Shown here one piece after another: positions 1,197 to 63,407 of a DNA stretch of 64,000 nt (within the stretch, counting starts at the first letter, position 1; each line of letters begins with the position of its first letter). The stretch lies in NCBI GenBank assembly GCA_014381925.1, contig JACNKR010000027.1, positions 1,991-65,990 on the forward strand, written 5' to 3'. A program made the position numbers and the translations under genes. The notes under the pieces are model-generated. The model saw only the letters and a program-made list of their open reading frames with translations. It was not told the DNA's origin and did not search any database. Origin of the DNA: Fidelibacterota bacterium (GTDB lineage Bacteria > Fidelibacterota > Marinisomatia > SCGC-AAA003-L08 > GCA-2689995).

Positions 1197-3038
1197 TTAG
1201 ATTAACCCCTTTTTAAGGAAAGTTACAAACTTGTTTATATCTGTATCCATTCCAGCAAAACGAGAAATTTCAACATCATCTGGCGATAAAATCACATAAT
1301 ATGGTAAGGCCGCTGTACCAAATCGGTCAACTTCCATTTGCTGGTATTTCCGAGCATTTTTTCCACCATCAGTATATAATCGAATTAATATAAATTGCTC
1401 AAATAACTCAATGACTTCAGATTCTTCAAAAATATTCATTTCCATCCAACGACAATTTGTACAAGTATATCCTGTAAAGTCAAGGAATACAGGTATTTGA
1501 GTTTCTTTACTCTTTGCCATTCCTTCTTCAAAATCTTCATACCACTTTAAATTTTCATGGCTTGAAATAGATTCAGTGTTAGATTTTTCAACATAGGTAA
1601 AATCGGGTGGAAGATAAGAATCAATTAATCCATGAATAGGTTGCCCAAATAATCCAGTACTTAAATATAATCCAAAACTTAAACATGCAATACTCATCAT
1701 CAATCTCGGCACACCTATAATTTCTAACTGTGAATCATGAGGAAGCCTAATTTTTCCCAATAAATAAACCCCCATTAATATGGCAATTATTGTCCAGCTT
1801 GCCAACACCATTGGCCTTGTAAATATACCAAGCTGCCAAACTAAATCTGTATTACTGAAAAATTTAAATGCAGCACCGAGTTCTAAAAAACCCATAATCA
1901 CTTTAACAGAATTAAGCCAACCACCACTTTGTGGTAATTTTGATAAATATTGAGGAAATAATGCTAAAAAGAAAAATGGTAATGCAAAGGCAGTCGCAAA
2001 ACAAACCATTCCTAAAACAGGCCAGAAATAATCACCTTGGCTTGCTGTAACTAAAAGCAGGCCTACAAATTGAACTGTACAGGTAAACGATGTTAATGTG
2101 AAAGTAAACGCCATAAACAGAATGCCCATCACTCCACCTCTCTGCTCCTGTTTCATACTAAACTGTCTTAATGCAGATGGCATTTCAATTTCATATTGAC
2201 CAAATAAACTAAATGCAAAATAAACAAATAATCCACCAATTAATATATTTATCCATGGATTTGAAGCAATTTGGTTTGCACCTGTTGCCCCTAAAGTTGC
2301 CGCCAATAACAATCCTAATACCGTAAAAATAGTAATAATTCCAATCGTATAAACACTTGCACTTTTAAGTGGTGACGAGCCTTCAGATTCCCCCATTTTT
2401 GTAAAAAATGAAACTGTAATTGGAATCATTGGGAATACACATGGTGTAAGTAAAGCTAAAAATCCCATTGAAATAGCAAGAAGAATAAATGAGCCAAACC
2501 CTTCCGAAATTGCCTCATCTACCATAGAGGTATTAGCAGTATTCTCCGTTTCACTATTTTCATATATCCCCTCATCAATAATCAATTGAATAGTAAAATC
2601 ATCCCATTTGGGAATACACATCGTCGGATCACATGCTAAATATACCAATGAACCCTCAACATCATATTCGCCTGGAATTAAATTTTTAGATACTTTTAAA
2701 TTTTTAGATAATCTAAATTTTTTCTTTTGAATCCCCACATCCATATCAAAATTCTTATCATATTTAATAATTGGATCCGGTTCTGTAAACTCTCCATAAA
2801 AATCAAAATAAGTAGAATCATAAAATTCAACTACAGTAGGTCTTAATGATTTTTCTGGATCTGTAGAATAAAAATGAAAATTGGTTTTTATATTTACATC
2901 AAAATGAATAATTAATGGTTCACCCGCTTTATAAGATGACTTATCAAGTGAAAAATCAAATTTCACTGCATCATCAAAATCCTGAGTAAATCCAATACTA
3001 AAAAATAGGAATAGTCCTACAAAAATATGTCTTTGCAT
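1197..3038 (-). CDS. dsbD: thiol:disulfide interchange protein DsbD-like
   Basis: Secreted N-terminal domain, multi-TM core with LTPCVFPM and SFTCT cysteines, and a C-terminal thioredoxin domain with CTNC. I moved the start to MQRHIF (3038). The longest ORF (to 3128) would overlap the upstream patatin gene by 86 nt, and the signal peptide follows this Met. Confidence 0.8.
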   Translation of the reverse strand: MQRHIFVGLFLFFSIGFTQDFDDAVKFDFSLDKSSYKAGEPLIIHFDVNIKTNFHFYSTDPEKSLRPTVVEFYDSTYFDFYGEFTEPDPIIKYDKNFDMDVGIQKKKFRLSKNLKVSKNLIPGEYDVEGSLVYLACDPTMCIPKWDDFTIQLIIDEGIYENSETENTANTSMVDEAISEGFGSFILLAISMGFLALLTPCVFPMIPITVSFFTKMGESEGSSPLKSASVYTIGIITIFTVLGLLLAATLGATGANQIASNPWINILIGGLFVYFAFSLFGQYEIEMPSALRQFSMKQEQRGGVMGILFMAFTFTLTSFTCTVQFVGLLLVTASQGDYFWPVLGMVCFATAFALPFFFLALFPQYLSKLPQSGGWLNSVKVIMGFLELGAAFKFFSNTDLVWQLGIFTRPMVLASWTIIAILMGVYLLGKIRLPHDSQLEIIGVPRLMMSIACLSFGLYLSTGLFGQPIHGLIDSYLPPDFTYVEKSNTESISSHENLKWYEDFEEGMAKSKETQIPVFLDFTGYTCTNCRWMEMNIFEESEVIELFEQFILIRLYTDGGKNARKYQQMEVDRFGTAALPYYVILSPDDVEISRFAGMDTDINKFVTFLKKGLI

Positions 3039-3042
3039 TAAA

Positions 3043-3999
3043 TTAATTATTACTCTCCATTTTGGGTTTTGTATTTTGAAATATTTTTTGAATTTTATTA
3101 ATAAATCTTGTTTTTTTCTTATATGCATGTTGAATCATTTCAAGGTTATCAATTACTGTATTTTCACCATTTTTTATTAACACATCAATTTTTGAAAAAT
3201 CACCCCAAAACAAATTCAAGGTATCAGGTTCTAAAAAAACATCCAAAATCTTGTTATTAAATTTAGAAAGTTTTTTAGTTGTAATTTGTTCCGTTCTTCC
3301 TAAAATTTGGATTAAATTTAAATTATTTATTGGATTAAATTTTTGAATATCTGCACTGACGCCAATTGTAAATTCAGAGCCATTATCAATAACCATCTGT
3401 GCAGGAATTGGACGAGAAACGCCACCATCGGTAAGCAACATATCTTTATATTTTATAGGTTGAATATATCCTGGAATAGCTGACGACGCAAGTACTGCAT
3501 CTAATAAATTTCCATCTTTAAAAATAATATCGTTTCCAGTATGTAAATCAACAGAAGAACAAGAAAATGGAAGTTTTAAATCTGAAAATTTTCTAACAGG
3601 TAACAAATATCTGAGTGCATCCTTTAATCTATCTGACTTTAATAATCCCAATCTTTCATTTACAATATTAATTTGGATTGTTTTTTTAACAAACTCAGTA
3701 GCCATTTGTAAAAAAGAATAATCATCTTCAGTTTTTGAATTTATTCGATTTAATCCAATAATTTTAAATTCATCACTATTAACAAAATTTTTAATTCTAT
3801 TTTCAACCCAATGTGTATCTAAAGTCGCTGAATACATTGCTCCAATAATTGCTCCTACCGAAGTTCCTGCAATTAAATCGGGTATGAAATTATTTTTCTC
3901 TAATTCTCTCAATACTCCGATATGGGTTAAACCACGAGCACCACCACCACCTAACGCAATTCCAATTTTTAGTGAATTAGGAATCTTACTTTTCCTCAC
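3043..3999 (-). CDS. patatin-like phospholipase (RssA-like)
   Basis: GGGGARG oxyanion motif, GTSVG (GxSxG) nucleophile, and TDGG catalytic Asp motif. Confidence 0.85.
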   Translation of the reverse strand: MRKSKIPNSLKIGIALGGGGARGLTHIGVLRELEKNNFIPDLIAGTSVGAIIGAMYSATLDTHWVENRIKNFVNSDEFKIIGLNRINSKTEDDYSFLQMATEFVKKTIQINIVNERLGLLKSDRLKDALRYLLPVRKFSDLKLPFSCSSVDLHTGNDIIFKDGNLLDAVLASSAIPGYIQPIKYKDMLLTDGGVSRPIPAQMVIDNGSEFTIGVSADIQKFNPINNLNLIQILGRTEQITTKKLSKFNNKILDVFLEPDTLNLFWGDFSKIDVLIKNGENTVIDNLEMIQHAYKKKTRFINKIQKIFQNTKPKMESNN

Positions 4000-4852
4000 T
4001 CAATTTTACTCTAACTTTTTTTATTATTACATCAGACATGGGTCTATCACTATAAAGGTTTTTCTGTTGCACAGTTCTATAATTATTTTTATTCAATCCA
4101 TTTGGAGTTTTTGAATAAATTGTTTCACCCGTTTTAGGATCTTTCAATGTTACCCAATTTTCAGGATCTTCATCTACTGGAATTTCTTTTTTTGAATTTA
4201 TCTTTACAATACTATATCCCGTTGGAGCTTTCACAATTCGATCAATAACATGAATTTTACTTGTTACTTCACCAAATACAGTATATTTCCCATCTAAATG
4301 AGGTGCATCAGCAACACAGATAAAAAATTGGCTCCCCGCTGAATTAGGGTCTGAGGATCTTGCCATTGACAATACTCCTTTTTTATGAGAGTAATTATTA
4401 AATTCAGCGTCAATAGTCCACCCTGGACCACCCGTACCATCATTTTCATCATCAAAATCTCGAGATAAAATATCTCCACCTTGAATCATAAATCCAGGGA
4501 TTACACGATGGAAAGTTGTTAAATCATAAAATCCACTATTTGCTAACCGCTTAAAATTCTTACAATGTTCTGGTGCAATATCTGGAAATAATTTCATTGT
4601 AAATTTCCCCACTGAAGTTTCCATATAAACAATATCATTTTCATTCACCTCTACAATTGGAAAATTTTTTACATTCGCTTTTATTTCATCTATTTTAGAA
4701 TCTATTAATTTGATTTGATTTCTTGGAGAATTAATAAGCCCTTTCATATCCAAACCTAATTTAGGGTCATATTTTAATATTGCGAGCGAATCTTGTGCAA
4801 TTGTTGCTCCAATAAATAAAATAATTAAAAAAATCGGTGATTTTGTTTTCAT
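3986..4852 (-). CDS. secreted cyclophilin-type peptidyl-prolyl cis-trans isomerase
   Basis: Signal peptide plus the cyclophilin motifs FHRVIPGFMIQGGD and SMARS..PNSAGSQFFI. Confidence 0.85.
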   Translation of the reverse strand: MKTKSPIFLIILFIGATIAQDSLAILKYDPKLGLDMKGLINSPRNQIKLIDSKIDEIKANVKNFPIVEVNENDIVYMETSVGKFTMKLFPDIAPEHCKNFKRLANSGFYDLTTFHRVIPGFMIQGGDILSRDFDDENDGTGGPGWTIDAEFNNYSHKKGVLSMARSSDPNSAGSQFFICVADAPHLDGKYTVFGEVTSKIHVIDRIVKAPTGYSIVKINSKKEIPVDEDPENWVTLKDPKTGETIYSKTPNGLNKNNYRTVQQKNLYSDRPMSDVIIKKVRVKLSEEK

Positions 4853-4980
4853 TTTGTTTCAATATTTATGTTAGAAATTAGTTGCTATTACAAGTAATTT
4901 ATCCTTTTCGGTGATAAATATCTAAAGTTAATTTTGTAAATAATTTTAACAAAATTTTATTATAATGAAATATTAAACAA

Positions 4981-5556
4981 ATGGAACAACTGGCACTCGG
5001 AATATTAGAGAAATCAAAGACGAAAGTCATTGCAGAAATACTGAATGGGTTCAATGGTTTTAAAATTGAATTTATTGAAAAAATCGGCAGTGATGATATT
5101 GCACAATTAATTGAAGTATCAGAAGAATTAGTTAAAAAATTCGGTGATTCTGCAAAATTGACTAAAAGTAATATTACAAAATATTTTAATAAAGATACAC
5201 TTCCATTTGTAGCTCGACAAAATTCTAAAATTATTGGGTACATTATTGGTGTTCCTTTAGAATATTTTACAAAAGAAGCATGGTCTCATTATGATATTAA
5301 TTTAGGAAAAGATAATACAATGTATACCTATGCATTTGTTGTTAGTGAACAATTTCAAGGACGAGGCGGTTATGCAAAATCGTTAAAACGAGTGTATTTA
5401 AATTATGTAAAAAAACGAAATTATAAGTTTATTACTGGACATACCGAATTAGGTATCGCAAAAAACTTTTCAAAAGATACAGAAACTGTGAAAATTTTTC
5501 CAGAGTGGTATAATAGTAGAGTTTCTTTTGAATATTATAGAAGACCAATTAAATAG
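4981..5556 (+). CDS. GNAT-family N-acetyltransferase (probable)
   Basis: 191 aa. QFQGRGGYAKSL resembles the GNAT acetyl-CoA motif Q/RxxGxG/A. The rest is not diagnostic. Confidence 0.45.
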   Translation: MEQLALGILEKSKTKVIAEILNGFNGFKIEFIEKIGSDDIAQLIEVSEELVKKFGDSAKLTKSNITKYFNKDTLPFVARQNSKIIGYIIGVPLEYFTKEAWSHYDINLGKDNTMYTYAFVVSEQFQGRGGYAKSLKRVYLNYVKKRNYKFITGHTELGIAKNFSKDTETVKIFPEWYNSRVSFEYYRRPIK

Positions 5557-5566
5557 GAGAATGATA

Positions 5567-6466
5567 ATGAAGTTTATAAAATCAATATTAATATTTTTAT
5601 TATTTCAAATTGGGTTTTGTATTTCTTTATGGGATGTATATTTTGAATCAGAGCCCGCACATGGATATGATAAGTATATGATATTAAATCCAGACGAAGA
5701 ATATATAGGAGGATTTGGAGTCTATGAGGGGTTAGTATTCATTGAAGGAAATGGTGCGGTTATAGACCTGCAAGACGGTTTAGGAATCTGGGTATCAGGT
5801 GCGGATTCTATTTCTGAAGTTAGATTAGATATGGAATATTTAACTATTATAAATGGTTTTGAATACGGTGCATATTATTCAGGTTATGCAAAAGGCGATA
5901 TAAAAAATTGTAATTTTATAAATGATTATATGGGTTTAAAAATGTTAGACCAAACTTTTTTAAATGTGGTTAATTGTAATTTTATTGATAATGAAGCGTA
6001 TGGGTTTGCAATATATTCTTCAATTCCAACACATCATTTATCCTATTGTAATGGATGGAATAATGGTGAAACTTATATGGAAAACTGCCCTGGCTGAGGA
6101 AATATTTGGACTCTGTTAGAGCCCGAACCTGGTACTGGAAATATAAGTCTAAATCCTGAATTTTTAAATCAGAATAATCTGCAATTTGAGTATAATTATA
6201 TATCACCATGTATTGATCAAGGAGATCCCGAATTAACAGATCCTAATGGTTCACGGAGTGACATTGGGGCAAATTTTTATGAAAATTCATTATTAGGTGA
6301 TTGTAATAATGATGCCGTGCTAAATGTAATAGATATTGTTGGAATAATTGATGGATGTATTTTAGCTGCAAATTTAGAAGATTGTAGTTGTGGAGATTTA
6401 AATGTGGATGAACAAATCAATGTAATTGATATTGTTATTATGGTGAATTATATTTTAGGGAATTAA
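5567..6466 (+). CDS. secreted parallel beta-helix protein with C-terminal dockerin-like module, interrupted by one in-frame TGA (6095..6097)
   Basis: Signal peptide MKFIKSILIFLLFQIGFC follows an AGGAG RBS. Beta-helix rungs are present (NCNFINDYMG, NCNFIDNEAYG). The same frame stays open after the TGA and encodes conserved-looking SPCIDQGDPELTDPNGSRSDIGA plus a two-repeat dockerin. 5567..6466 is exactly 300 codons. Confidence 0.55.
6296..6463 (+). other. dockerin-like duplicated Ca-binding module
   Basis: GDCNNDAVLNVIDIVGII ... GDLNVDEQINVIDIVIMVNYILGN. Two DxNxDxx(I/L)NxxD(I/V) loops, each followed by a hydrophobic helix. Confidence 0.65.
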
Positions 6467-8157: not shown

Positions 8158-9162
8158 TTATTTTGACATTTTCATCGGATCAGGTACTTTTCTTGCAATT
8201 AAGTACAATGTAATAAATGCAATAAATAATAATGTCAAGACCCCAAACCATTGAAATCTATCTTTATAATAAATAGAAGATTGTGCAGAAATTACAAAAT
8301 CATCATCAAGTATATCAACACCAGAAAACCGCCATAATAAAGTATCGCCAAATGCTGAATCAGCATTTGAGCTAATTAATAAACCCGGCATAACAGTTGT
8401 TAATTCAATAATATCATCGGCTAAATCAATTGTAATTCTGGCTTCATTTTCATATTTATCAACTAAGTCTGTAAACTGAATACTTGCTTTCTCAAGAAGA
8501 TTTTTACAGATTATTTTAATGCCTTCATTTTTTATAAATTCAAAATTTGATTGTAAAGATTCATTATTATAATTTTGATTTATTTTATTCAGCCAATGTT
8601 CAAGATCTAATTTCACCATGGGTTCCAAATTAAACCCAATATCAGTTTCACTTAATGCTTGATTAAAAATATATGTTAGCCCATTAAATACCCAATCAGC
8701 AGGCGGATTATCCTGGTCTTTTAAAAACTGTACAACAAGGGGGTATTTTTCTGACGCTTTCCGGCTAGAATAAGTAATATTAATATCCCAATTCTCTCTA
8801 ATAAATTTATTCGAATAATCTATAGAAAAGTGATGGTCTAATAAAATTTCATTTGAAATTGAATCTGAATTAAAAAATGATTGAGGAAAATTTTCACCAT
8901 CTTTAAAATTTTTAACAGCTCTAAAATTATATTCTTCACTATTTTCATTAAAATTATGATTAATTACCCAATCTAGCCCCGTAGGTAATGGAAAATCAAA
9001 ATCTAATAAATCTTTTTTATCTCCAGTGGCAGAATGGTCATAATCAAAACTTCCTTCAGGATATACAATTATTGAAATATTATGTTCAACACAAGAAGTA
9101 AAAATAATGATAAAAAATAATATAAATAAAAAATTGACTCGTTTTTGCATAATTAATTCCAA
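8158..9162 (-). CDS. hypothetical protein with lipoprotein-like signal (FTSC) and C-terminal TM anchor
   Basis: Long ORF with a signal peptide and a C-terminal hydrophobic helix (GVLTLLFIAFITLYLI). I recognise no family motif. Confidence 0.45.
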   Translation of the reverse strand: MELIMQKRVNFLFILFFIIIFTSCVEHNISIIVYPEGSFDYDHSATGDKKDLLDFDFPLPTGLDWVINHNFNENSEEYNFRAVKNFKDGENFPQSFFNSDSISNEILLDHHFSIDYSNKFIRENWDINITYSSRKASEKYPLVVQFLKDQDNPPADWVFNGLTYIFNQALSETDIGFNLEPMVKLDLEHWLNKINQNYNNESLQSNFEFIKNEGIKIICKNLLEKASIQFTDLVDKYENEARITIDLADDIIELTTVMPGLLISSNADSAFGDTLLWRFSGVDILDDDFVISAQSSIYYKDRFQWFGVLTLLFIAFITLYLIARKVPDPMKMSK

Positions 9163-28509: not shown

Positions 28510-31500
28510 TTAACCTAAAATAATATTAATAATGATAATGATATCAAAAACATTTAAAACTCCGTCACCATTAATATCTGCAATGTACAATTCAATTGAA
28601 TCTAACGAATTTGATGTTGGATTTAATATTTGATTTACAATTAAAATAACATCAACAATATTAATTACAGTATCTTGATTTACATCTCCCATTGTTAATG
28701 GTGTACTTGGACGAGTCGTAATAAATAATGCCGACTCATCAGCTAATGATAATGCAGTTTCAGGATATTGATTATTAAATGAATATTGTAAACCATCTGT
28801 ACTTGTATGATCTTCTATTCCAACAGTAGCATAAGAACCATGAAATGCAGTAGCACCGCTATAATTTGAAGTATTATTAACAGTTTTATATTGAATTTTA
28901 ATTTCTCCATCACCTGTTGGTGTTAATGTATCATATAAAATAATTTGAAAATCTTGATCATCATTTCCACCATCATTTCTCATATCAGACCACTCAATTA
29001 TAAATACATCCATATTGGGGTTATAAAAAGTGTAAACATCGCCATTGTTAGATGTTTTTAAATCATCCCAAAATGCTGCAATCATGGGTGATGGTCCACC
29101 TGCACCCGGAACAGGATAGTTTCTAAAAGATGTCATTTCGGAGTCACCAAAAGTTATCCATCCATTGGTACAAATAGTGACTTGGCTATATTCTATTCCA
29201 TAGAATGAAAAATCAAATGGTAAGTTTATAGTTGTCGTTTGTTGTAAACTGGGATTACCATCACCACTATTATTTAAATTTAAGTTTGTTCCAGAACCTC
29301 CATAATCAGGATCAATTTCAATCCAATCATAAATTCCTGCTAAGTTATATCCTAAATCACCTGAATCATATATATAATAACCATGTTGGTCAGGACCAAG
29401 AGGATCTGTAATAGTAGCAGTCCCTACTTGAATATGCAATGGTTCACTATGATTATATCCACTTGAGCTTGTTAAATTTAATTGTACAGGAATAACTGTT
29501 CCATTAATAATATTTTCATTTGCTGTAATTTCAATAGAATTAGATGATAGTACTGAGCTATTTGCATTTATTAAATTCCAAGAAATATTATTATCAGCCA
29601 CCGTAAATGTGCTTCCTGGAATAATTAATTCTCCACTAATATTATCTACACCAATATTTCCAATATTTTTTAATTCAATTTGTATATTTTTTGTTTCACC
29701 CGGATTAATTGTACTTCCAGTTATAAATGTATAATTATTTACAATTAATCTTCCACCGACAACATTAACAGGTAAATATCCATTGGCTTCATTTATGTTT
29801 TCATCAGAAATTCTAATTCTTAATCCAAGTTCTTCACCATCCATTGCACTCTCATTTAAAGAAATAAAATACGAAAGTATAATTTCTTCATTTGCCCCTA
29901 TACTTGTTATTGTCTCAATTGAATTTCCATCTAAAAATGTTATTAAATCAATATCTGCTGTTAATTCTACAGTTAAATTAGTCTGTGTTGAACTCCCAAA
30001 GTTTTTTATAGGAATAGCCAAAGAAACTGTTTCACCCGGATTAAATAAACCATCATTATTCCCAGTCAATGGAAAAGCCATACCATCATCATAAATTGAA
30101 ATATTTTCAGCGACTACATTTACAGGAAGAACTGCATCTGTTACTGAAATTGTCCCTTCGTGTGGTATTTTATTTTTCATTGTTACAGTTACGCTTATAC
30201 TTCCCTCTGGAATATCTTCAATATGAAAAAATGCATTCCCTGAATTATCAGTTAATCTATTTTCAAAGATTATATCATTCCCCATTAATAATGTAACCAA
30301 CGCATCTTTAAGTGCATTATTATTTTCATCATTAACCGCAACTTCAATAAAATTTGAACCTAATGATAAATTAGAGTTATAGTTTACAGATAATTCCCTT
30401 GGGGTATCTGTCCATAAATGCGTTGCGGGATCACCCATTAAATTATTCCAATGGGTAAATATATTAACCATATTACCAGAATTAGAAGGGTATGTTTTTA
30501 TTAAATGTAATTTACCATGGACTAAAGCTTCGCCTGCTGTTTGAGCATTACCAGGAAATAATCCCCAATAAATACCCATATCTACAATATTATTATACAT
30601 TGTGTGGGTCCCTGAAGTTGCAGTACCAACTGATGCAATTGCACCTTTAGGGATATTCTCTGACCCCGCTCTAAAAAATGATTCTGACAATGCTTCACCA
30701 CCCCACGAACTTCCAAAACTACCTGTATCACAAGTTAAGACTGTTGCAAATGGAAGCATATAACCATTATTTAGATTATTAATATTTCCACTACCAAATC
30801 CACTTACACCAATATAACCTCTATAATTTAAAAACAACACACCACTGTTTAACTTATTACTCATAAAACTTGACCAGCCATTGTTATACTGGGTATCTAC
30901 ATTTTCAAATTCATATTCATCTAACATATCATTAATAAACATATTTGTAATTATAGTAGAAACACCTGAATAAGAAGGATCGCCGGCAAGTGCAGCACTT
31001 TCATACCAGTCTGTACCTGTTTGTGCAATATACGATGCTTTTTCATAATGAATAATTTTATTTACAACGGTTGCAATATCACTTGAATTTTCAACCGACA
31101 TTCTACCTATTACAACATCGGGATATAAATCATCACCATTTAACAAACCGTATGGATTATCTCCTTTACCACTATATCCTGACCAATTTTCCGTAAAAGC
31201 AGGAATACTATATGAACCACTCACATCACCAATTAAAGTAACAAATTCTGGCTTGGGGTCAAAATCTTCATATGCATTTTGAATATAATTTTTTATTGAA
31301 TTCGTGCTTGTTCCTGTCTGGGAAGTTGAAGCAGTATAAACCGTATATCCCCTTTTATGCCGCCATTCTAATAAGTTTTCTATATTATTATTTGTTAATG
31401 CGTTTCCACCCCCAATAACTAATATTGCAGGCTCTTGAAATTCCATATCTTCAGTACGAGTAAAATTAGGAATTAAACTTTCATACATTTTCACAAAAGG

Positions 31501-62540: not shown

Positions 62541-63407
62541 ATTCCTACCATAACCACTAAAACAAAACAGGTCTGGACAATCCTCGATATAATCAATTGG
62601 GGAAAAGATTATCTTACAAAACATGGTATAACGAATGCCAAACTCGAATTAGAATGGTTTTTAAGTGACTTATTAAAGTGTAATCGGATTGATTTATATA
62701 TACGATTTGAAGAACAATTACATCAATTAGAATTAGACAAAATCCGAAAATTTATTACTAGACGAAAAACTCATGAACCGTTTCAATATATTTTAAAAAA
62801 AGCTCCATTTTATGGAAGAGATTTCATTGTAAATAATTCAGTGCTCATTCCAAGACCTGAAACAGAAACAATAATAGAAATTATTAAACAAAAATCTGAA
62901 AGTGGTAATTTTTTAGATATTGGAACAGGGTCAGGATGTATAGCAATTTCTCTTTTAAAAGAAAAAATATTTAGTACAGGAGTGGCAATTGATATTTCTC
63001 GAGAATCATTATTTATTGCGAATCAAAATAAACTAAAATTTCAAATTGAAAATTTAGAATTTAAACAATTAGATTTTCTAAATGAAAATATTAACCAAAC
63101 ATTCAACTGTATAGTCTCTAACCCTCCATATATACCACCTGAAGAAATGAAGTCTCTCAAAGATGGTGTAATAAAATTTGAGCCTGAAATAGCACTTACA
63201 GATTTTTCGGATGGACTCTCTTTTTATAGAAAAATTGCAATTGATGGGAAAAAATTATTAAATCCAAATGGCTTTATTATTTTAGAAACGGGTGGTGAAA
63301 ACCAAATTATACAAGTTAAACAGATATTTTTAGATCAAAATTATATAGTTATTATTCATAAAGACCAAAATGGAGAAAATAGGTTTTTAGAAATTACTCC
63401 AAAATGA
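62541..63407 (+). CDS. prmC: release-factor glutamine N5-methyltransferase PrmC/HemK (non-canonical start likely)
   Basis: SAM motif DIGTGSGCI and NPPY motif (SNPPYIP). A conserved HemK N-terminal domain (..WGKDYL..AKLELEWFLSDLL..THEPFQYIL) is encoded in-frame from 62541. There is no ATG/GTG/TTG before 62841. Confidence 0.75.
   Translation: MPTITTKTKQVWTILDIINWGKDYLTKHGITNAKLELEWFLSDLLKCNRIDLYIRFEEQLHQLELDKIRKFITRRKTHEPFQYILKKAPFYGRDFIVNNSVLIPRPETETIIEIIKQKSESGNFLDIGTGSGCIAISLLKEKIFSTGVAIDISRESLFIANQNKLKFQIENLEFKQLDFLNENINQTFNCIVSNPPYIPPEEMKSLKDGVIKFEPEIALTDFSDGLSFYRKIAIDGKKLLNPNGFIILETGGENQIIQVKQIFLDQNYIVIIHKDQNGENRFLEITPK

Follow-up and report, generated by a model that had tools for sequence, protein, structure and literature searches.

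Recoding of UGA as selenocysteine (Sec) in the manner of the Escherichia coli fdhF gene combines an in-frame UGA, a short hairpin within about 10-12 nucleotides (nt) whose apical loop starts with GU, a genome that encodes SelA, SelB, SelD and a selenocysteine tRNA (tRNA-Sec), and the continued use of UGA as a stop codon elsewhere. The same combination is found at a gene in a 64,000-nt stretch of the genome of a Fidelibacterota bacterium (GenBank contig JACNKR010000027.1, positions 1,991 to 65,990), which is referred to here as the window. The gene lies at positions 5561-6466 of the forward strand, encodes a predicted small right-handed beta-helix protein and carries an in-frame TGA at 6095-6097. 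It differs from the fdhF type in its hairpin, which is family-specific and without an Rfam match, and has a stem of 7-8 base pairs (bp) and a 3-nt loop; its binding by SelB is a prediction. The TGA is very probably a Sec codon, and the protein represents an uncatalogued selenoprotein family whose decoding mechanism is the ordinary bacterial one.

We know of no selenoprotein built on a right-handed beta-helix fold. Known bacterial selenoproteins are mostly thioredoxin-fold or metalloenzyme redox proteins, and the 2026 catalogue of 119 prokaryotic selenoprotein families and subfamilies includes neither this family nor any selenoprotein on a beta-helix fold (PMC13188914). Text searches of the papers on GOS (PMC2398784), deep-Sep (PMC12013277) and BSepDB (PMC13326102) found no beta-helix family, and full-text searches for selenoprotein together with Marinimicrobia, SAR406, beta-helix or dockerin returned nothing relevant. 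Neither the Sec nor the cysteine (Cys) forms of the protein have a family model in Pfam or NCBIfam. A thioredoxin-fold oxidoreductase of the CxxU/UxxC type was rejected, as the motif follows the last strand of a beta-helix in the structural model; the window protein also has no match to the thioredoxin family in Pfam or NCBIfam.

The GOS_C family, i.e. the 'Omp28-related selenoprotein' NF045500 (PMC2398784, PMC13188914), is likewise marine and exported, carries the same dockerin-like tail and has copies in this genome, but it combines a thioredoxin-like fold with a UxxC motif, whereas the window protein combines a beta-helix with CxxU. Membership of GOS_C was rejected at 18.4 bits against a cut-off of 200, with only residues 246-299 (the dockerin-like tail) matching. 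The GOS_C/Omp28-related copies are three tandem genes outside the window, on the reverse strand of contig C6 (5606-9008); two read ATW-TGA-xxC, with the TGA at C6:7837-7839 and 9006-9008, the third reads ATW-C-DPC, and all three have dockerin-like repeats near the C-terminus.

The window protein shares its predicted fold, the SPCID..DIGA cap and a predicted exported location with beta-helix proteins that have a 'choice-of-anchor Q'-type cap (PF13229, NF041518), NosD among them (PF05048, TIGR04247). Homologues of the window protein give weak NosD and Beta_helix matches. Assignment to NosD (TIGR04247/PF05048) was rejected: the window protein has no match and its homologues reach 16-24 bits against a cut-off of 300. 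In contrast to NosD there are no NosFY partner genes, and the window protein is far shorter, its helix spanning about 145 residues. The type I dockerins of cellulosomal enzymes (PF00404; 1daq, 2vn5, 2vn6, 2ccl) resemble the dockerin-like tail of the protein, a C-terminal duplicated repeat of the Ca-binding type of about 55 residues; the host here is, however, a marine Gram-negative bacterium of the Fibrobacteres-Chlorobi-Bacteroidetes (FCB) group and not a cellulolytic Firmicute, and the cohesin partner is only putative.

Organization of the gene

Read from the ATG at 5561, the frame contains a single internal stop, the TGA at 6095-6097, after which 122 further codons lead to a TAA at 6464-6466. 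The predicted product has 301 amino acids (aa) counted from this ATG and 299 aa from a second ATG at 5567; the latter is, from the sequence, the more likely start. The parts follow in the order signal peptide, small right-handed beta-helix, Cys-Pro-Gly-Sec loop, cap motif and dockerin-like domain, as listed below.

5555..5559, forward strand: AGGAG ribosome-binding site (RBS), by direct sequence reading; the ATG at 5567 begins 7 nt after it
5561..6466, forward strand: complete predicted selenoprotein gene, from its translation, its single copy in the genome, full-length orthologues and an AlphaFold2 model
5561..5626, forward strand: predicted N-terminal signal peptide (MIMKFIKSILIFLLFQIGFCIS), by sequence reading, the cleavage site being approximate
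5651..6085, forward strand: predicted right-handed parallel beta-helix, residues about 31-175, from AlphaFold2 strands
6086..6097, forward strand: Cys176-Pro-Gly-Sec179 (CxxU) motif, directly after the last beta-strand; Cys-x-x-TGA in 30/30 aligned orthologues
6095..6097, forward strand: TGA very probably read as Sec (residue 179); same single TGA in every complete orthologue, Sec machinery in the genome
6107..6125, forward strand: SECIS-like hairpin (SECIS, selenocysteine insertion sequence); stem 6107-6114 pairs with 6118-6125, apical loop GUU at 6115-6117
6203..6271, forward strand: beta-helix cap motif SPCIDQGDP..DPNGSRSDIGA, conserved in Sec and Cys homologues
6296..6463, forward strand: dockerin-like C-terminal domain with two repeats of the Ca-binding type (GDCNNDAVLNVIDIV.. 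and GDLNVDEQINVIDIV..), from Foldseek and a PDB profile search

The local context of the TGA is ..YMENCPG-TGA-GNIWTLLEPEPG.., i.e. ..SYCNGWNNGETYMENCPG-TGA-GNIWTLLEPEPGTGNIS.., and the region 3' of it encodes SPCIDQGDPELTDPNGSRSDIGA and the two dockerin-type repeats. An earlier reading of the stretch from its letters and open reading frames (ORFs), here the sequence-only reading, had claimed that the ORF ending at 6097 and the following 369 nt are in one frame and that the downstream part encodes meaningful protein; the 122 codons, with cap motif and dockerin-like tail, bear this out. Since the cap motif is conserved in both Sec and Cys homologues, the region after the TGA can be taken as translated protein.

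Conservation of the TGA across the phylum

Orthologues were collected by a six-frame search of 60 relatives and by a search of a 301-genome sample of the phylum. The first search returned about 36 full-length orthologues from four families of the order, at 93-41% identity and each with exactly one TGA, which falls into one alignment column in 30/30 aligned orthologues (..ENC-P-G/N-U-G-N/S-IWTP..). In the phylum sample, one TGA was present in 34/34 orthologues, including those of other orders and of another class, at identities down to 37%. Its position is identical at all 36 loci that were aligned or read, and five orthologues read from the phylum sample have CPGU, CVGU, CFGU (twice) and CLTU at the site. 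The Cys-Pro-Gly-TGA motif that had been proposed from the window is real. The hosts are metagenome-assembled genomes (MAGs) of 'Candidatus Neomarinimicrobiota', i.e. Marinimicrobia/SAR406, and independent metagenome contigs from TARA and NCBI also have the TGA.

If the TGA were a true stop, the product would be a secreted beta-helix of 178 aa, and the 122 codons downstream would be untranslated or a decaying remnant, left by pseudogene formation, a TGG-to-TGA mutation or a sequencing error. Public annotation agrees with termination: proteins of 174-178 aa are recorded as 'hypothetical' or 'right-handed parallel beta-helix repeat-containing', the GenBank members being truncated proteins of about 175 aa such as MBH49298.1 ('hypothetical protein', 174 aa) and NOZ08857.1 ('right-handed parallel beta-helix repeat-containing protein', 176 aa), and TGA is a normal stop codon in this genome. 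However, a conserved frame of >120 codons (SPCID..DIGA and dockerin) stays open after the same TGA in every complete orthologue, at 37-93% identity, whereas a decaying remnant would gather stops and frameshifts. In the alignment of 30 orthologues, protein conservation is continuous across the TGA, and no conserved start codon or RBS is found 3' of it. Because the TGA is conserved across the phylum, sequencing error, recent pseudogene and TGG-to-TGA mutation, which the sequence-only reading had kept as alternatives, are excluded; true termination as such is most improbable, and decoding as Sec is preferred.

Stop codon usage and selenocysteine machinery of the host

The genome (2.48 Mb in 81 contigs, 29.7% GC) does not recode TGA throughout. 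TGA terminates 164 of 1069 long ORFs (15%), with a median in-frame extension of 5 codons beyond it. As had been pointed out from the window, a glcD-like ORF with full Pfam coverage (9233-10663) closes with TGA at 10661-10663 and the ORF at 62841-63407 closes with a TGA that overlaps the next start codon; moreover, TGA is the terminal stop of this same gene in seven of the 30 aligned orthologues. The search for selA, selB, selC and selD that the earlier reading had suggested located them all. ARAGORN reports a 94-nt tRNA-Sec(UCA) at C63:21054-21147, and no other tRNA has this anticodon; on contig C21, selA lies next to selB (429 bits for SelA; 377 bits for selB, cut-off 242). The selD gene (C64:9298-10215, 380 bits) has its own single in-frame TGA (..SSGAG-U-ACKLGP..) and thus encodes a selenoprotein itself, with an 8-bp hairpin whose loop lies at the same distance from the UGA as that of the beta-helix gene. 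Since nearly the whole order has SelA (58 of 61 genomes), presence or absence of the machinery was uninformative as a discriminator.

These data also bear on the proposal that a standard amino acid is inserted at the TGA, whether by reassignment of the code (Trp, code 4; Gly, code 25) or by near-cognate read-through without selenium. Some public gene calls do give a full-length protein with the TGA as Trp. Yet TGA closes 15% of long ORFs without in-frame continuation, and closes this gene itself in relatives; the sole tRNA with a UCA anticodon is the tRNA-Sec, in a genome with a complete Sec pathway; plain read-through would not require a covarying hairpin at SECIS distance; and the equivalent residue in homologues is Cys, never Trp or Gly. 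Decoding as a standard amino acid has, on this evidence, hardly any probability, and Sec remains the preferred residue.

In a collection of 5.8 billion proteins, the matches are either cut at 174-178 aa or, among those read that align across the site, full-length with 'W' at this position; in the two matches checked at the DNA level the 'W' is a TGA translated by a code-4 gene caller. In public sets (P0003, P0006, P0008-P0018 and others) the Sec codon is given as Trp by callers that try genetic code 4 on short contigs. Full-length 'CPGWG' proteins in public collections resemble Trp homologues but are not.

The hairpin downstream of the TGA

Bacterial SECIS elements are stem-loops placed just 3' of the UGA, whose apical loop contains a G (as GU) at a distance of roughly 16-37 nt from it. 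In the window, the hairpin uGG-a-CUCU[GUU]AGAG-c-CCg lies 12 nt 3' of the TGA, and the first base of its GUU loop follows the U of UGA by 20 nt; this geometry falls within the range given and agrees both with the E. coli fdhF element and with the bacterial SECIS (bSECIS) model. The sequence-only reading had noticed a hairpin with GU in its loop, and the structure proves to be conserved and covarying in 35 sequences.

Pairing holds in 84% of the cells of this alignment, while controls with a shifted 3' partner reach 56% at most, and placing the structure off by one column as a negative control leaves 28% pairing. Compensatory double changes occur in five of the eight pairs (27 cells), and the covariation score of 0.389 compares with at most 0.124 in the shifted controls and was reached by none of 500 shuffles. 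In every sequence the loop opens with G and U. Stems are swapped wholesale between clades with pairing kept, in seven versions: CUCC/GGAG, CACC/GGUG, CUCU/AGAG, GGGUUCA/UGAACCU, GGGUUCC/GGAACUC, GGGCAGA/UCUGCC and GGGAAGA/UCUUCC. The amino acids encoded by the stem vary with it (T-P-W, T-L-L, V-Q-F, A-E-C, E-E-F), and constraint on the protein alone is insufficient to account for the stem pattern.

In the mechanism proposed here, the hairpin in the mRNA would be bound by the organism's SelB carrying Sec-tRNA(Sec), and the complex would direct insertion of Sec at residue 179 instead of termination, to yield a single protein of about 300 aa. Failure of decoding, e.g. when selenium is scarce, would leave a beta-helix of 178 aa without cap or anchor.

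Selenocysteine and cysteine relatives outside the phylum

Distant relatives were obtained by a profile search of 1.84 billion representative proteins and a follow-up search. They are about 260-350 aa long and share the N-terminal signature (LQxVY..GYDK..YTGG) and the cap motif; their C-terminal tags differ, with a true sorting domain of the type IX secretion system (TIGR04183) in P0130 and a TWGRIK tail in others. At the site they read C-G-C or C-S-C, and several are cut at 176-187 aa, ending ..NCG. The column check proposed from the window accordingly finds TGA in every complete orthologue and Cys in distant homologues, with TGG never seen.

For two loci the DNA sequence was read. In the first, L068 (ENA ERZ27256778 k141_1718489, 2991-4783; 59% GC), two tandem genes reading ..[RN]CG-TGA-[GS]GG.. 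continue through the TGA to 261 and 268 aa, with a strong hairpin in each. Homology to the window protein extends across residues 20-237 (33% identity, E 4e-31), and their Sec falls exactly on the second Cys of the CGC motif of P0214 (39% identity, E 1e-41). In the second, L101 (ENA ERZ27247960 k141_2862058, 3486-5335), a Sec paralogue (DCG-U-SGMKAW) stands in tandem with a Cys paralogue (DLS-C-DGMQPW); the two align exactly at the Sec residue, and the Cys paralogue, which has no upstream Cys, keeps Cys at the Sec position. In a marine sub-branch (P0015 type) Cys and Sec are adjacent (ENC-U-G). Judged from the sequences, the signature of the family is C-x(0-2)-[U/C], located in the loop that follows the final helix rung; among the members read, it is the Sec/Cys residue that stays constant.

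Both L101 paralogues end in the TWGRIK-type C-terminal tag, which was matched to no known sorting signal. A JGI contig (sample 3300042731) of the same 59% GC lineage as L068 also has tandem CG-Sec copies, two or three being present in the lineage; behind them comes a Fer4_5 polyferredoxin gene, joined in L068 by a small gene with a faint HMA match.

Fold, export and the dockerin-like tail

AlphaFold2, run on a 15-sequence alignment, gives a model of mean predicted local distance difference test (pLDDT) 85.7 with a signal helix, the beta-helix at residues 31-175, then a cap region of irregular structure (176-245) that opens with CPGU, and two helices at 256-300. The hydrophobic N-terminus, modelled as a helix at residues 2-18, is conserved in orthologues. 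Precomputed Pfam annotation places PF13229 on nearly all homologues, and a Foldseek comparison of the beta-helix part with the PDB returned generic beta-helix lyases only (E>=2e-3), which gives no functional lead.

The tail is matched by Foldseek to type I dockerins with a probability of 1.00 and template modelling (TM) scores of 0.72-0.82 normalised by target, and the PDB profile search returned dockerins only (E 2.4e-4 to 1daq). A search of this genome lists 75 matches at E<=0.01, nearly all of which cover only the dockerin-like tail of about 60 aa, so that the tail may be a general surface-sorting tag. Cohesin-like candidates are present at C39:41649-41963 (27 bits, above the Pfam cut-off) and as two modules in a 1407-aa ORF on C68, and the sequences hint at a cohesin-dockerin surface display system in Marinimicrobia; a full-text search returned no paper pairing Marinimicrobia with dockerin. 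Export of the protein and its attachment to the cell surface by way of the tail are probable, as its predicted signal peptide and dockerin-like domain suggest.

Dockerin-like tail matches inside the window lie at about 13883-14080 on the forward strand and at 17112-17291 and 28513-28692 on the reverse strand. In other Marinimicrobia (L053, L055, L091-L093, L095), orthologues of about 390-410 aa have the dockerin tail replaced by another C-terminal domain of about 150 aa, which consists of repeats of GWNL[IV]G.. / GYW[LV]R...

Proposed reactivity of the Cys-Sec pair

A vicinal Cys-Sec pair is present in mammalian thioredoxin reductase, within its C-terminal GCUG. Selenoproteins of the CU/CxU families SaoL, HgcA and MbdU (PMC13188914, Table 1) likewise place Cys 0-2 residues before Sec on a loop; by analogy, this arrangement suggests a selenenylsulfide or a metal site. 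The folds and contexts of all of these, thioredoxin reductase included, are unrelated to those of the window protein, and the likeness is confined to the motif. Since the Sec/Cys position is kept even in homologues without the neighbouring Cys, the reactive residue is probably the Sec. As to function, we infer a reactive Cys/Sec pair on a cell-surface protein: Sec179 and Cys176 would form a reversible selenenylsulfide, serving as a redox or chalcogen-transfer site on an exported protein.

As the main alternative, Sec may be inserted as proposed and the Cys/Sec pair may bind a soft metal (Cu, Hg, Zn) or a chalcogen, rather than being a catalytic selenenylsulfide redox centre. The spacing of Cys and Sec varies (CU, CxU, CxxU), which fits a flexible chelating loop better than a rigid redox helix of the CxxC type; CU and CxU motifs are listed for metal-related selenoproteins (PMC13188914); in L068 the genes lie beside one for a polyferredoxin and another whose HMA match is faint; and homologues have weak NosD matches. 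On the other hand, no metal-related neighbour is conserved in Marinimicrobia or in other lineages, and some Cys forms retain just the one Cys that stands in for Sec, an arrangement ill suited to chelation. Binding of this kind is a tentative proposal and rather unlikely, and soft-metal binding would be the less likely role when set against a selenenylsulfide redox or chalcogen-transfer site, which is the reading retained below.

Several observations weigh against the selenoprotein interpretation or its extension to function. Folded alone, the window hairpin reaches -8.8 kcal/mol with z = -1.3, which is not significant, and the structural claim consequently rests on covariation; an Rfam scan of 5900-6400 at E<=10 gave only chance matches to small nucleolar RNAs and microRNAs and no bacterial SECIS family. 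On the window protein, both Pfam domains score under their gathering cut-offs, Beta_helix (PF13229) with 21.1 bits against 25.9 and Dockerin_1 (PF00404) with 19 bits against 22.9. Within Marinimicrobia the searches gave no Cys form; the pairing of Sec with Cys forms is known from relatives at 25-33% identity, and in comparison with the window protein the Sec is offset by one residue (CPGU versus CGU/CGC). Finally, no partner gene is conserved across lineages: the neighbours are a GNAT gene in Marinimicrobia, the polyferredoxin gene and the gene with the faint HMA match in L068, pst genes and an AhpC-like gene in L099, AsnA in L100, and MTTB and radical SAM genes in L101.

Taken with these points, the fuller interpretation is held with moderate confidence. 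It describes an uncatalogued selenoprotein family, the sole one found on a right-handed beta-helix, which in SAR406/Marinimicrobia would leave the cell and be anchored on its surface by the dockerin-like tail and which has Sec (CU, CGU) and Cys (CGC) relatives elsewhere; the Sec/Cys residue after the last rung would be the essential reactive centre. Together with the dockerin-tagged GOS_C selenoproteins of the same genome, the family would point to redox or chalcogen chemistry that depends on selenium and takes place outside the cell, at the surface of a bacterial group that is among the most abundant in the deep ocean.

Implications

A secreted, surface-anchored beta-helix selenoprotein would broaden the range of folds and cell locations known to use Sec, and the family would add to the selenium that SAR406, an ocean phylum abundant worldwide, requires. 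Annotation systematically misrepresents the gene, which is truncated at about 175 aa or given a Trp by code-4 callers; a family model would correct the records of many MAGs. The CU, CxU and CxxU forms, set against the CxC forms, constitute a natural series on what Sec offers over Cys.

Neighbouring genes

The gene directly upstream of the selenoprotein gene is the following.

4981..5556, forward strand: GNAT-family acetyltransferase gene (Pfam Acetyltransf_1, E 5e-5)

A GNAT gene occupies this place, on the same strand, in 24 of the 30 orthologous loci in Marinimicrobia. Since its stop codon overlaps the RBS of the selenoprotein gene, the two genes probably form one operon in Marinimicrobia. 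The GNAT product is better conserved than the selenoprotein, at 44-63% identity outside the genus.

Further upstream, the window begins inside a transfer-messenger RNA (tmRNA) gene (C35:1891-2245, tag ADYGYAAAA), of which it contains the part at 1-255 on the reverse strand; for this reason, ARAGORN reports nothing on the window alone. A DsbD-type thiol:disulfide interchange protein (DsbD_TM and a thioredoxin-like domain) is encoded at 1197-3128 on the reverse strand, about 2.4 kb upstream of the exported CxxU protein. DsbD was not matched in the 1.5-kb flanks of the orthologous loci, a test that says little, as the distance of about 2.4 kb in the window exceeds these flanks. A cyclophilin gene lies in the window at 3986-4852, and a cyclophilin gene is also found near the L068 copies.

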